The notes: generated by a model from the sequence alone, not told the origin. A stretch of DNA of 64,000 nt from Escherichia coli (GCF_003018255.1 NZ_CP027440.1); one strand, 5' to 3'. Shown: positions 6,568 to 22,560, counted from the stretch's first letter. A program made the numbers and translations.

Positions 6568-7467
6568 ATGAAACCCGACGCACACCAGGTTAAACAGTTT
6601 CTGCTCAACCTTCAGGATACAATTTGTCAGCAGTTGAGCGCCGTCGATGGCACAGAATTTGTCGAAGATAGCTGGCAGCGCGAAGCTGGCGGCGGCGGAC
6701 GTAGCCGGGTGTTGCGTAATGGTGGTGTTTTCGAACAGGCGGGTGTCAACTTTTCACATGTCCACGGTGAGGCGATGCCTGCTTCCGCCACCGCTCATCG
6801 CCCGGAACTTGCCGGGCGCAGTTTCGAGGCGATGGGCGTTTCACTGGTAGTGCATCCGCATAATCCGTATGTTCCCACCAGCCACGCGAATGTGCGCTTT
6901 TTTATTGCCGAAAAACCGGGTGCCGAACCCGTCTGGTGGTTTGGCGGCGGCTTCGACTTAACCCCTTTCTATGGTTTTGAAGACGATGCTATTCACTGGC
7001 ACCGCACCGCCCGTGACCTGTGCCTGCCATTTGGCGAAGACGTTTATCCGCGTTACAAAAAGTGGTGCGACGACTACTTCTACCTCAAACATCGTAACGA
7101 ACAACGCGGCATTGGCGGGCTGTTCTTTGATGATCTGAACACGCCAGATTTCGACCACTGTTTTGCCTTTATGCAGGCGGTAGGCAAAGGCTACACCGAC
7201 GCTTATTTACCAATTGTAGAGCGACGTAAAACGATGGCCTACGGCGAGCGCGAGCGCAATTTCCAGTTATATCGTCGCGGTCGTTATGTCGAGTTCAATC
7301 TGGTCTGGGATCGTGGCACACTGTTTGGCCTGCAAACCGGCGGGCGCACCGAGTCTATCCTGATGTCAATGCCGCCGCTGGTACGCTGGGAGTATGATTA
7401 TCAGCCAGAAGATGGCAGCCCGGAAGCGGCGTTAAGTGAGTTTATTAAGGTCAGGGATTGGGTGTAA
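6568..7467 (+). CDS. hemF: oxygen-dependent coproporphyrinogen III oxidase
   Basis: ORF 6565..7467; ATG at 6568 gives 299 aa ([13 protein letters not shown]...); starts 3 nt after amiA stop. Confidence 0.93.
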
Positions 7468-8525
7468 CTCCCTCCCCCCCATTCCCGCATCCGCTGATGC
7501 AGCGTCAGTGACGGCTTCTCGGCAAACAGCTGCTGGTAATCCGTGGCGAATTGCCCCAGATGCCAGAATCCCCACTGCATGGCGGCGTCTTTTACCGTTG
7601 TGCTTTGCGACCAAGGGCTTATCAGTTCGCGGCGTACGGCGTTCAGGCGAATGCGTTTCAGCCACGCGTTTGGGCCAATGCCTAAAATAGCGTGAAACGC
7701 GTTTTGTAGCGTGCGGCGGCTGACATGCAGTTGATTACACAAGTCCAGCACCGTCACTGGTTCGGACATGTTTTCCAGCACATATTCACGGGCGCGGGAA
7801 AGCAATCGACGGTAACTCTGATGACTGATGCTTTCCGCCGTCACCATTGGCTGCGCTTCTTCCAGCATCGCCCCCATCGCCATTAGCAAATTATCCCCCA
7901 GCACTTTTCGCACTGCAGGCTGATGGAGATTTTCCGGGTTTTCGCAAAACGTCGCCAGCGCCTGTTGGACAAAGCCCCACAGAGCGGCTTTATGCTGCTC
8001 TTTCACTTCCAACGCCGACTGGCTACGCAGCATATGTAATACCCGATCCGGATTATGCAAAAAGTTAGCCTGACGAGTGATGACATCTTCAGAAAGCACT
8101 ACGCCAAGGATCGTGTAATCGTCCGGCGTACTTAATTCAAACTCGGTTCCACCGGGGCGCGTCGCTATTTCTGCGCTTCCCAGACATTGCGAACCGATAA
8201 ATCCCTGCTCACCGCGCGTCGCCGGAATGCCAAACCAGAACGAGTTCGGCCAGACCAGGCACGACTGGCGCAGCGCCAGACCGGTGTATTCACGGAAAAC
8301 CTGAATATCATCGAGTAGAATTTCCGTAAATTCACCATGAAACTTGCCCGGATGCAGCTGATCGTAAATCTGCTGCCAGGCGGTAATTGTCAAAGCATGT
8401 TCATAGACATCCGTTGTCTGTCGTTGATGAACATTATCCACTTCGACCTTCGGCGTGAGCTTCAGGTTTTCGGGTAAGGGTTCATGATAAAGATGGTGCA
8501 AATTGGCTGTACGGGTCTTTTTCAT
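7401..8525 (-). CDS. eutR: AraC-family transcriptional activator of the eut operon; ORF is 24 codons longer than the 350-aa length I recall and overlaps hemF 3' end
   Basis: 374-aa ORF; AraC HTH in C-terminal part; last gene of eut cluster; upstream in-frame stop fixes start at 8525. Confidence 0.85.
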
Positions 8526-8570
8526 GATGTTAATGCCGGGTGTTGTAGGACACCCGGCACCTCCGACAGG

Positions 8571-9071
8571 TTAATGGGGCTTGAGACGATAACGACTACT
8601 GCGTTTACGTAACGTCCCGGCAGAAAAGAGCTGTTCGAGCGCATTTCTGGCTTTTTCCAGCGGCCAGCCAAAGTGGGCAGCCACTTCTCCTGCCGTCATT
8701 CCCTGACGTACTGATGTTAACAGCGCCAACAACTCGTCAGCAGATTCCGCGACGATAACTGGCGCGTCGGGTTCCTTTACGGGTTGCTTAGGCTGGCGGT
8801 TAAAGCCAGTAACCAGCCACTGGGTGTCATCGTCTGGCCGACCGATCTCCTTACGGCTGATGACACGCCCGGTACGCATCGCGGCAGCACAACCTGCGTC
8901 CAGCGCCGCACGACACGCCGCCAGATCGCCTTCCACCACCAGCGTTAGGCGACCAGGGTCAAGCACTTCGTGACTGAGCAGACGAACGTTAGCTGCTTTG
9001 AGCATGGCATCAGCTGCATCTATCGCGGCGACCATGCCGTCCACTTCCAGCAATCCCAGTGCATTGATCAT
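8571..9071 (-). CDS. eutK: ethanolamine utilization microcompartment shell protein EutK
   Basis: ORF 8571..9077; BMC domain N-terminus (MINALGLLEVDGMVAAI...) plus C-terminal extension; synteny. Confidence 0.9.
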   Translation of the reverse strand: MINALGLLEVDGMVAAIDAADAMLKAANVRLLSHEVLDPGRLTLVVEGDLAACRAALDAGCAAAMRTGRVISRKEIGRPDDDTQWLVTGFNRQPKQPVKEPDAPVIVAESADELLALLTSVRQGMTAGEVAAHFGWPLEKARNALEQLFSAGTLRKRSSRYRLKPH

Positions 9072-9083
9072 CGGCAACCTCCG

Positions 9084-9743
9084 TTACGCACGCTGGATTG
9101 GATTACGCGCGATTTCCAGCACTGCATCGGTAAAGGCGTTACAGGCTGCTTTACACGCGGCCTGGCTACCGGTTAAAAATGCTGCCGAGTAGTTGGTTTC
9201 AGACGGTGGCGGGACATAGGTCACCAGCTGTACGTCGGCAGATTTCAGGGCTGCATCAATGCCGTAGGTCGCTTCCAGCGGCGGTGCCACCAGATACGCC
9301 ATCGGATCGCCAAGCGTGATCCCGGCGGTTGATGAGAGATAAGAACCGGTACGCGAAACTACATGTGCCAGGAAGGCTGTGTTTTCTGCGTCATTAGCCC
9401 ACTGGAAAGCAGCGCCATTTTCAATATGCGCAACCATCGCATCCAGACCAGCACGCACTTCCGCCGGGTTTGGCCCACCAAGCATAATCAGCACTTCACC
9501 GGCAGTCGGTGACGGGCCGTGTGCGGCTCCCGCATACAGCGAGCGGCCATACACCACTTCCACCATCGCCTGCTTGGTCGCTTCGTCAGCCGCAATGTAG
9601 GTGACGTCATCTGAATCAGCAGAAATCAGCCCGAGGCTACGAATATGCGGCGGCAATTTCAGTTCACGCGCAAATTCGGCGTTAACGGAGGCAATCACCC
9701 GCATGGCGGTTACCGACGGTCGAATCAAATCTAAAGCTGGCAT
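9084..9743 (-). CDS. eutL: microcompartment shell protein EutL (tandem BMC domain)
   Basis: 219-aa ORF; synteny eutC-eutL-eutK. Confidence 0.92.
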
Positions 9744-20959: not shown

Positions 20960-21657
20960 AAGGATTGCCAGTTAGCCGGCCAGGCGACATACAGGAATTT
21001 CACGCTGGATGTCGTACCAAATTCGATGCTGGAGCCTTTCGGGATAAACATCACATCGCCCGCTTTGGCGATCATAGTTTCGCCTTCGTGGCGAACATGC
21101 AGCTCCCCTTCCAGCACCATGTCGATTTCGTCGTAGTTCAGGGTCCACGGAAAGAAGGCGTTCTCCCACTGCATGAAACCAGCGGCCATACTGCTGCCGT
21201 CGTCTCCGGTCACGAGATCAGTCAAGCCTACGCAGTGCGGTTCCGCGCCATCGAAACGACCAAACTTGACGCTGCTGCCATCAATAACTTTGATGCCGCC
21301 TTTGCCGGTCACCGATTTAAAGCTCGGCTGCAGTGCACCCTGCTCCAGCGACTGTTTTTCCTTCATCACTTTTTCCATCAGCTGCGCGACCAGGCTTTCG
21401 GTAAACTGACCTTCCGGCAGTTGGGCGATAATGGTTTCACGGATGCGCTGGCTTTCGGTTTTATCGGCTGATGCGCTGGCGGGAACAGACGCCGTTACCG
21501 GGATCGATTCATCACATTCGGTGATGGTAAAACCCAACAGATCAGCCACTTCACGAGCTTCCGGGGTAATAATGCTGGCGCGCAGAACCACGGACATTGC
21601 CAGTTCGCCGCGCGCGTGTGCTTCACGAATATCATTCGCTGTGATGAGTTTTTTCAC
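20956..21657 (-). CDS. eutQ: cupin-fold acetate kinase-like protein EutQ
   Basis: 233-aa ORF; synteny. Confidence 0.9.
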   Translation of the reverse strand: MKKLITANDIREAHARGELAMSVVLRASIITPEAREVADLLGFTITECDESIPVTASVPASASADKTESQRIRETIIAQLPEGQFTESLVAQLMEKVMKEKQSLEQGALQPSFKSVTGKGGIKVIDGSSVKFGRFDGAEPHCVGLTDLVTGDDGSSMAAGFMQWENAFFPWTLNYDEIDMVLEGELHVRHEGETMIAKAGDVMFIPKGSSIEFGTTSSVKFLYVAWPANWQSL

Positions 21658-22111
21658 CTGCTTCCTCCTGTTTGGTGAGAGATGCCAGATAATCCACCAG
21701 TTGCTGCACGCTTTGCGGGTCGTGGCTGTTTAGCTCGAAAATCGGCTCTTCGAAGCCCGTCTCAAGCAATAACTTTCGCGTTGCGGCGACGTCAGCATCT
21801 GGCATGTCCGTTTTACTGATGACGGCGATTTGCCGTTTGCTGACGCCAATATCCAGCAACCCGGCAGGCAACCGACTTTCCGGGTCATTCGCGCCGTGGA
21901 CATAGATCAGCATGTCCACATCCTGTAGCGTGGTAATTAATGCGTGATACCAGCGGGGATGGCTAAAATATTCACCCGGCGTATCAATATCGCCATTATC
22001 ATTAAATTCCACGGCCTGCGTTTTTCTGGCGAGGGTATAATTCCCCTGCAACGCATTAAATAACGTTGTTTTTCCTGCCCCGACGGTACCCACAAACGCA
22101 ATTCGTTTCAT
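21632..22111 (-). CDS. eutP: P-loop NTPase (acetate kinase-like) EutP
   Basis: 159-aa ORF with Walker A motif (GTVGAGKTT); 26-nt overlap with eutQ start. Confidence 0.9.
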   Translation of the reverse strand: MKRIAFVGTVGAGKTTLFNALQGNYTLARKTQAVEFNDNGDIDTPGEYFSHPRWYHALITTLQDVDMLIYVHGANDPESRLPAGLLDIGVSKRQIAVISKTDMPDADVAATRKLLLETGFEEPIFELNSHDPQSVQQLVDYLASLTKQEEAGEKTHHSE

Positions 22112-22123
22112 GAATGCCTCATA

Positions 22124-22459
22124 TTAACTTTTGGTCATTTCACAAAGCGTATAATTTAATAAGCGTCCTAAACCACTGACGGTTTGTGATAACGCTTCTT
22201 CTACTGCGCCCACCGAACCATAAATCACCAGCGCGCCGCTAAAACGGTCGAGAAAACCGATATGCACATCGGCGGCTTTCAAAGCTAAATCACCGGCGAT
22301 CATCGCCGTTTCTCCGGGAGTTAGCGTCATAATGCCAATTGCGCCCGCATCCGGAACGCCGATTTTCTTCGCCAGTTCCTCGCCGGGATGCGCGATGAGA
22401 TGCGCCAGCGTGACCTGTTTGCCGGGCACAAATTCCTGAATGATGCGTTCTTTATCCAT
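22124..22459 (-). CDS. eutS: microcompartment shell protein EutS (permuted BMC domain)
   Basis: ORF 22124..22531; start taken at internal Met ([16 protein letters not shown], 111 aa); first gene of operon. Confidence 0.88.
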
Positions 22460-22560
22460 GAGTCGCCGCCTGTGAAAAACTTTCGTGTATCGTGACAATT
22501 TTTCGTCAGAGTAAATAACAAAATTCGGCAAGCGCGTTTAAAAGGTGAGGTAGATCACTA
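22460..22560 (-). promoter_or_regulatory. eut operon upstream promoter region (expected EutR-dependent promoter)
   Basis: Position immediately upstream of first operon gene eutS; no motif confirmed. Confidence 0.4.

Follow-up and report, generated by a model that had tools for sequence, protein, structure and literature searches.

The ethanolamine utilization (eut) operon is known from Escherichia coli and its relatives. In the prophage-free strains E. coli B REL606, Nissle 1917 and uropathogenic E. coli (UPEC) 536, and in Salmonella enterica LT2, it has 17 genes in a fixed order and orientation, with hemF and maeB on its flanks and 11 nt between eutA and eutB. The K-12 strains MG1655 and BW25113 carry in addition the 6.8-kb cryptic prophage CPZ-55 together with a duplicated TCAGGAAG, and in BW25113 the prophage reportedly prevents both the expression of eutB and the formation of microcompartments (PMC7617246). 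Here we examined the eut operon in 64,000 nt of E. coli sequence (NZ_CP027440.1), the whole of which is referred to below as the window. The window shares the 17 genes, their order and orientation, the flanks and the 11-nt eutA-eutB spacer with the prophage-free strains, and is without the K-12 prophage and the duplication. It differs from the prophage-free strains in two proteins: EutB has 458 aa rather than 453 aa, and EutR has 374 aa rather than 350 aa and overlaps hemF at the gene level. On balance, and with moderate confidence, we favor the reading that this is a canonical, ancestral, prophage-free eut operon with a probably tolerated read-through of eutR and a frameshift that weakens EutB.

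A frameshift at the 3' end of eutB

eutB (10647..12023, minus strand) encodes the large subunit of ethanolamine ammonia-lyase (EAL). Comparison with relatives placed the frameshift in a run of four C on the plus strand (10687..10690; GGGG on the coding minus strand) where the relatives have GGG. The extra base lies 8 codons before the end of the gene; it leaves residues 1-445 unaltered and replaces the tail AGDPSLFF-stop by GGRSVTVLLMTRR-stop. The new stop codon is 6 nt ahead of the eutC ATG, compared to 20 nt normally.

A single-base change in the length of a G/C run is also what a homopolymer error in sequencing or assembly would produce, in which case the true gene would be wild type. The two closest complete genomes are without the extra base, and it was found in none of the 5,385 matching complete genomes (no match of ≥99% over 75 nt; the best was 74/75 with a gap). 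Two lines of evidence argue against such an error. Alignment of the 64 kb to JNE23-011, the closest complete genome, gave 35 single-nucleotide polymorphisms (SNPs) and one indel, which is the extra eutB base, and a sole indel among 36 differences is unlike an error-prone assembly. The exact 458-aa EutB was present on 6 contigs and was assembled from three runs deposited in two archives (SRR and ERR accessions): SRR7947255, identical to the window over 5.1 kb; ERR3653869, one SNP off; and SRR13450396, with a 19-bp tandem duplication in eutH as its sole difference. Since the same allele occurs in three independently assembled runs, an artefact was rejected, and we regard this explanation as very improbable. 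We concluded that the eutB frameshift is real, and that it marks a small, repeatedly sampled clone, because the three runs carry it on identical or near-identical backgrounds.

The SNPs relative to JNE23-011 are bunched at 54165-55451 and 57247-58598, with 11 in purM/purN, 10 in ppk1/ppx and 14 elsewhere. Such clustering suggests that the strains, near-identical otherwise, differ here by small patches of recombination. An enrichment of the differences in eut was considered and rejected, the operon having 6 SNPs in ∼15 kb and the other 49 kb having 29.

The likely effect of the frameshift was judged from the conservation and predicted structure of the EutB tail. A search through 1.8 billion cluster representatives supplied 26 diverse EutB representatives. 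Of these, 21 retain A446, 21 retain G447 and 19 retain D448; 15 align as far as F452, and 11 of those have it. Over its entire length EutB of Listeria (PDB 2QEZ) can be aligned with that of E. coli, and its last residues are RAGDASIF. An AlphaFold model of wild-type EutB had a mean pLDDT (predicted local distance difference test) score of 93.9, with 87-90 in the tail and a short helix at 449-452, and the tail is thus predicted to be ordered. Given the conservation of AGD and F452, the absence of the extra base from the 5,385 genomes and the predicted order of the tail, the frameshift probably weakens or abolishes the ammonia-lyase activity. The second eut lesion found in a sister isolate, the eutH duplication, was counted as further support for a harmful frameshift.

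Several points weigh against this reading. Just 8 of the 453 EutB residues are replaced, the NCBIfam EutB score falls by 2.4 bits only (662.3 vs 664.7), the tail is lacking or varied in some homologs, and the additional eutH lesion has been seen once only; partial or full EutB activity may remain. Searches of the literature gave no specific report on what the EutB C-terminus does or on naturally occurring eut frameshifts in E. coli. The same near-unchanged profile score could be taken to mean that the operon is fully functional, that the changes at the ends of EutB and EutR are neutral polymorphisms, and that ethanolamine is used as in most E. coli. Full function would suit several observations: each of the 17 genes has an open frame, a normal start and a family match along its full length; the allele with the extra base persists in 3-4 sampled isolates or more; and the tail diverges in a few distant homologs. 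It is harder to reconcile with the conservation of the AGD motif and F452 from Proteobacteria to Firmicutes, with a tail that is ordered by prediction and with an extra base that is absent from every matching complete genome; the variant also puts two extra arginines and a hydrophobic stretch at the position of the conserved short helix. We consider full function rather unlikely, and prefer the reading in which EutB is weakened.

In SRR13450396 the 19-bp tandem duplication of CTCGCTGGTTTGAAAAACC (L005 ∼944-981, corresponding to window ∼13759) splits eutH into 304-aa and 98-aa pieces on the eutB-frameshift background. Thus a second, independent, frame-disrupting lesion is present in one of the three sister runs, which raises the alternative that the clone is actively losing ethanolamine catabolism, with the eutB frameshift as the first hit and the operon decaying under relaxed or negative selection. 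Against it, only one additional lesion was seen, and in a single isolate; the remaining 15 genes show no damage, and of five coding SNPs relative to JNE23-011 four are synonymous, a pattern that gives no hint of relaxed constraint. We think such decay improbable, and hold with equal reserve the corresponding picture of a small E. coli clone whose ammonia-lyase is inactivated by the EutB frameshift and which is starting to gather further eut lesions. If it were true, the clone would offer a natural example of ethanolamine catabolism being lost in a species whose core otherwise includes the operon, and the conserved AGD...F tail of EutB would be shown to be essential.

The eutA-eutB junction and the lineage of the host

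In MG1655, CPZ-55 (annotated as 6,790 bp) sits between eutB and eutA and is flanked by the 8-bp direct repeat TCAGGAAG, in which the first three bases are complementary to the eutA stop codon; PMC6379469 describes this 8-bp duplication as well. The window has one copy of TCAGGAAG (12035..12042), which includes the eutA stop codon, and the CPZ-55 target site is therefore empty. Neither intZ nor yffL-yffS was found between eutB and eutA, where the window has only the 11-nt spacer. The first-pass annotation of this DNA, made from the sequence alone, had stated that the two genes are 11 nt apart and that CPZ-55 is absent, and both statements held. It had also called the arrangement ancestral, and Klebsiella grimontii bears this out: its genes run eutN-E-J-G-H-A-B-C-L-K-R followed by hemF and amiA, the eutA-eutB gap is 11 nt, and its EutB and EutR have 453 aa and 350 aa, respectively. 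As judged from this comparison, the uninterrupted eutA-eutB junction is ancestral.

The frequency of the uninterrupted junction was determined with 201-nt junction queries over 5,426 complete E. coli genomes. A 16-kb megablast search was dropped for this purpose because its 8.5-kb joining rule would bridge the 6.8-kb CPZ-55. The empty junction aligned in one piece in 4,963 of the 5,426 genomes, and the K-12 left junction was covered in 409 genomes, 221 of them at ≥99% identity and 188 at 90-95%. The uninterrupted 11-nt junction is also that of REL606, which we take to be a close phylogroup-A relative of K-12. The 409-genome count agrees with a published site occupancy of 8% of 638 genomes (PMC6379469).

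Other elements have been found at this site. In the non-K-12 strain AW1.7 (O128ac:H12) a truncated tyrosine-recombinase (integrase) pseudogene and an IS5 transposase lie between eutB and eutA (L011 12090-14070), and the annotation makes eutA shorter than usual by 4 codons; the insert resembles a degraded element, located at the same hot spot. A novel prophage at the eutA-eutB site was described in a UPEC strain, where the site was termed a hot spot (PMC6652756). The AW1.7 insert and the UPEC prophage indicate that strains other than K-12 can also have this site occupied.

Because the prophage-free arrangement is ancestral and is the majority state, REL606 included, it says almost nothing about lineage. 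The first-pass annotation had read the missing prophage as a sign of a non-K-12 lineage, while granting that the same adjacency in a K-12-like reference would make it uninformative; REL606 shows that adjacency, and this part of the proposal falls. Its other part, that the source is not K-12, stands on different grounds. DNA identity to MG1655 across eut is ∼97%, and only two complete genomes, both of human isolates from Japan, reach ≥99% identity over the operon, all others being at ≤98%. No loci used for typing of phylogroup or sequence type fall within the 64 kb. We concluded that a non-K-12 source is evidenced by sequence divergence and not by the absence of the prophage, and that the host lineage is uncommon among complete E. 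coli genomes.

Operon layout, eutR and the intergenic regions

The operon consists of 17 co-oriented genes on the minus strand (7401-22459), in the order eutS-P-Q-T-D-M-N-E-J-G-(BIME)-H-A-B-C-L-K-R, where BIME is a bacterial interspersed mosaic element. It is flanked by maeB (22752-25031) on the eutS side and by hemF (6568-7467), convergent with eutR, on the eutR side. Gene content and order were supported in three ways, by the list of open reading frames (ORFs), by the RefSeq annotation of the near-identical JNE23-011 and by NCBIfam matches: all 17 products match Eut models over the full length and above the curated cut-off. The order is that of K-12 (CPZ-55 aside), REL606 and Klebsiella. The proteins are 97-100% identical to their K-12 counterparts except for the altered C-termini of EutB and EutR, and 15 of the 17 have the normal length; residues 1-350 of EutR are also normal. 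The 17-gene minus-strand operon proposed at first is thereby confirmed, as is the statement that the system is well described and not new; we concluded that this is the known, textbook eut system and is ordinary.

The first three genes are eutS (22124..22459), encoding a microcompartment shell protein of 111 aa (full-length match to the subfamily model NF012012; 111/111 aa identical to K-12); eutP (21632..22111; 159 aa, NF012011 equivalog, 155/159 identical to K-12); and eutQ (20956..21657; 233 aa, GTG start, NF012001 equivalog). They are followed by eutT (20156..20959) for the corrinoid adenosyltransferase of 267 aa (NF011595 equivalog) and eutD (19143..20159) for the phosphotransacetylase of 338 aa (NF007233 / TIGR00651), which is named pta in JNE23-011 and eutD in K-12. 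eutM (18811..19104) encodes a hexameric bacterial microcompartment (BMC-H) shell protein of 97 aa (NF012018 equivalog; 97/97 identical to K-12), and eutN (18417..18704) the pentameric vertex (BMC-P) shell protein of 95 aa (NF011992 equivalog; 95/95 identical to K-12). Next are eutE (17002..18405), for the acetylating acetaldehyde dehydrogenase (467 aa; NF011927, full length), eutJ (16155..16991; 278 aa, NF011660 equivalog) and eutG (14978..16165), for an alcohol dehydrogenase of 395 aa (NF011998 equivalog). At codon 215 of eutG (window 15522) the window and K-12 have Thr and JNE23-011 has a private Ile215; the new RefSeq accession of the JNE23-011 EutG protein fits this change.

On the far side of the BIME, eutH (13435..14661) encodes the ethanolamine transporter of 408 aa (NF011665 equivalog) and eutA (12035..13438) the EAL reactivase of 467 aa, with a GTG start (NF007991 equivalog). 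eutB (NF011649, 662 bits; extension established by comparison of the translations) is followed by eutC (9753..10640), for the EAL small subunit of 295 aa (NF003971 equivalog, 340 bits), eutL (9084..9743), for a trimeric (BMC-T) shell protein of 219 aa (NF011934 equivalog), eutK (8571..9071), for a shell protein of 166 aa (NF012010 equivalog), and eutR (7401..8525), the last gene, for an AraC-type activator (NF007522 equivalog, 790 bits).

The window therefore holds the components expected of an eut metabolosome. The signature enzyme is present as EutB and EutC, with the last 8 residues of EutB replaced; the three shell classes are represented by full-length matches to hexameric EutM, EutK and EutS, trimeric EutL and pentameric EutN; and the downstream and cofactor set (EutE, EutD, EutG, EutA, EutT, EutP, EutQ, EutJ and EutH) is complete, with full-length matches above cut-off.

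The genes are closely packed. From the eutS end, a 12-nt spacer separates eutS and eutP, eutP and eutQ overlap by 26 nt, eutQ/eutT and eutT/eutD overlap by 4 nt each, and spacers of 38, 106, 11 and 10 nt follow at eutD-eutM, eutM-eutN, eutN-eutE and eutE-eutJ. eutJ and eutG overlap by 11 nt, the BIME lies in the 316-nt eutG-eutH spacer, eutH and eutA overlap by 4 nt, and an 11-nt spacer separates eutA from eutB. The remaining spacers are 6 nt at eutB-eutC (20 nt in reference strains), 9 nt at eutC-eutL, 12 nt at eutL-eutK and 45 nt at eutK-eutR. The figures given at first for eutQ/eutP, eutG/eutJ, eutT/eutD and eutA/eutH were correct, all four being overlaps and not spacers. The same annotation had called the operon uninterrupted, which is right as to the prophage and overlooked the frameshift at the eutB 3' end; the loss of the eutR stop codon and the number of BIME units likewise went unmentioned.

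In eutR, the stop codon TGA of K-12, REL606 and AW1.7 is changed to GGA (7473..7475, minus strand). The reading frame continues for 24 more codons, as far as 7401, and the gene overlaps the 3' end of hemF by 67 nt. The 350-aa form in Klebsiella, K-12 and REL606 indicates that the extension is derived. The 75-nt stretch at the lost stop codon had an exact match in 18 complete genomes, and the exact 374-aa EutR was found on 663 contigs; by these sequence counts the read-through allele is established and lineage-wide. The extension is probably tolerated, given its occurrence in those contigs and genomes and a 350-position profile (NF007522) that is fully matched by residues 1-350. The TGA to GGA change also makes a homopolymer of seven residues, G on the coding strand and C on the plus strand (window 7468-7480), which could be prone to slippage.

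The BIME (14692..14976) consists of three tandem 100-nt units with six repetitive extragenic palindromic (REP) sequences, as found by a repeat family (D1) and REP counts. Each unit is an inverted pair of a Y-type and a Z-type REP, with three matches of each type, and the units are 100%, 100% and 89% identical to the reference copy. The elements are imperfect palindromes of two types in alternating orientation and in tandem, as in a REP cluster. Comparison of the spacers (window 14662-14977; L004 15109-15324; L010 48838-49153; L011, from AW1.7, 16686-16800) gave about one unit in AW1.7, two in K-12, and three in both REL606 and the window, REL606 having the same 316-nt spacer. The 194-nt eutG-eutH spacer of Klebsiella had no REP match. 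An 84-aa ATG ORF within the repeats (14723-14977, minus strand) was rejected as a gene: it is made of the repeat units, starts right after the eutG stop codon and is unannotated in the references.

naRNA4 is a REP-derived nucleoid-associated RNA, and its Rfam model (RF02564) matched the BIME at 14742-14823 and 14842-14923 on the minus (sense) strand, with 75.5 bits against a gathering threshold of 59.5. The matches probably reflect similarity of REP sequences only. The REP325-type BIME-2 clusters, which are the source of naRNA4, likewise have alternating inverted REPs of two types, tandem amplification by 100-nt units and a strain-variable copy number; the BIME-2 label for the present cluster presumably applies, resting as it does on Y and Z2 consensus sequences rather than on a curated model. 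Unlike REP325, the cluster in the window sits inside an operon and, to judge from its position in the sequence, would be transcribed as part of the operon mRNA, with a strong calculated fold (-162 kcal/mol, z = -6.5). REP clusters within operons elsewhere offer an analogy for stabilization of the upstream message or attenuation of read-through. By that analogy the BIME may act in either way, and probably tunes the relative levels of the upstream and downstream messages.

The region between eutS and maeB (22460..22751, minus strand) is the expected home of the EutR-dependent main promoter, which has been placed upstream of eutS in published work on Salmonella and E. coli (Fig. 1 legend, PMC7617246). 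It has 292 nt in both the window and K-12, with 281 identical positions. Scans upstream of eutS and around eutK/eutR found no consensus sigma-70 site and no terminator. We list this blank among the points against the favored reading; it is uninformative, as would be expected for an activator-dependent promoter. A Rfam scan of the operon detected no riboswitch or regulatory RNA, the REP-derived naRNA4 matches being its sole hits, which fits control of the enterobacterial eut operon by EutR rather than by a riboswitch or EutVW.

Proposed working of the operon and its meaning

Gene content, gene order and intact reading frames were read from the DNA itself; for expression and activity, we infer a scheme from work on Salmonella and E. 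coli (PMC7617246, PMC6652756) and from the pathway as generally understood. In that scheme EutR, acting with ethanolamine and adenosylcobalamin, would switch on the promoter ahead of eutS, and the supply of EutR itself would be kept up by a weak promoter inside the operon. Ethanolamine would enter through EutH, and a shell would be made of EutS, EutM, EutN, EutL and EutK. Inside it, the B12-dependent ammonia-lyase EutBC would split ethanolamine into acetaldehyde and ammonia, reactivated by EutA and provided with adenosylated cofactor by EutT. Acetaldehyde would then be converted to acetyl-CoA, acetyl-phosphate and ethanol by EutE, EutD and EutG, with EutP and EutQ serving as acetate kinases. 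In the clone described here, the operon would probably still be induced and the shells probably made, and ethanolamine would be poorly catabolized.

Most E. coli have the prophage-free arrangement, and the finding in its original form is of little consequence. The eutB frameshift is the sole unusual feature of this locus, joined to a lesser degree by the eutR read-through, and both are mutations of a commonplace kind in an operon that is well known. The locus illustrates that the presence and proper spacing of all genes of an operon do not preclude a lesion in its key enzyme. Metabolic models and annotation pipelines would score this strain as ethanolamine-positive, while its catalytic subunit may be defective. 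A comparable mismatch is on record for BW25113, for which the K-12-based model iJO1366 predicts ethanolamine catabolism and growth assays showed none (PMC7617246). If the frameshift does inactivate EutB, the conserved tail would be marked as necessary for function, and the strain and the JNE strains would together provide a natural, near-isogenic test of the contribution of ethanolamine use to gut or urinary fitness.

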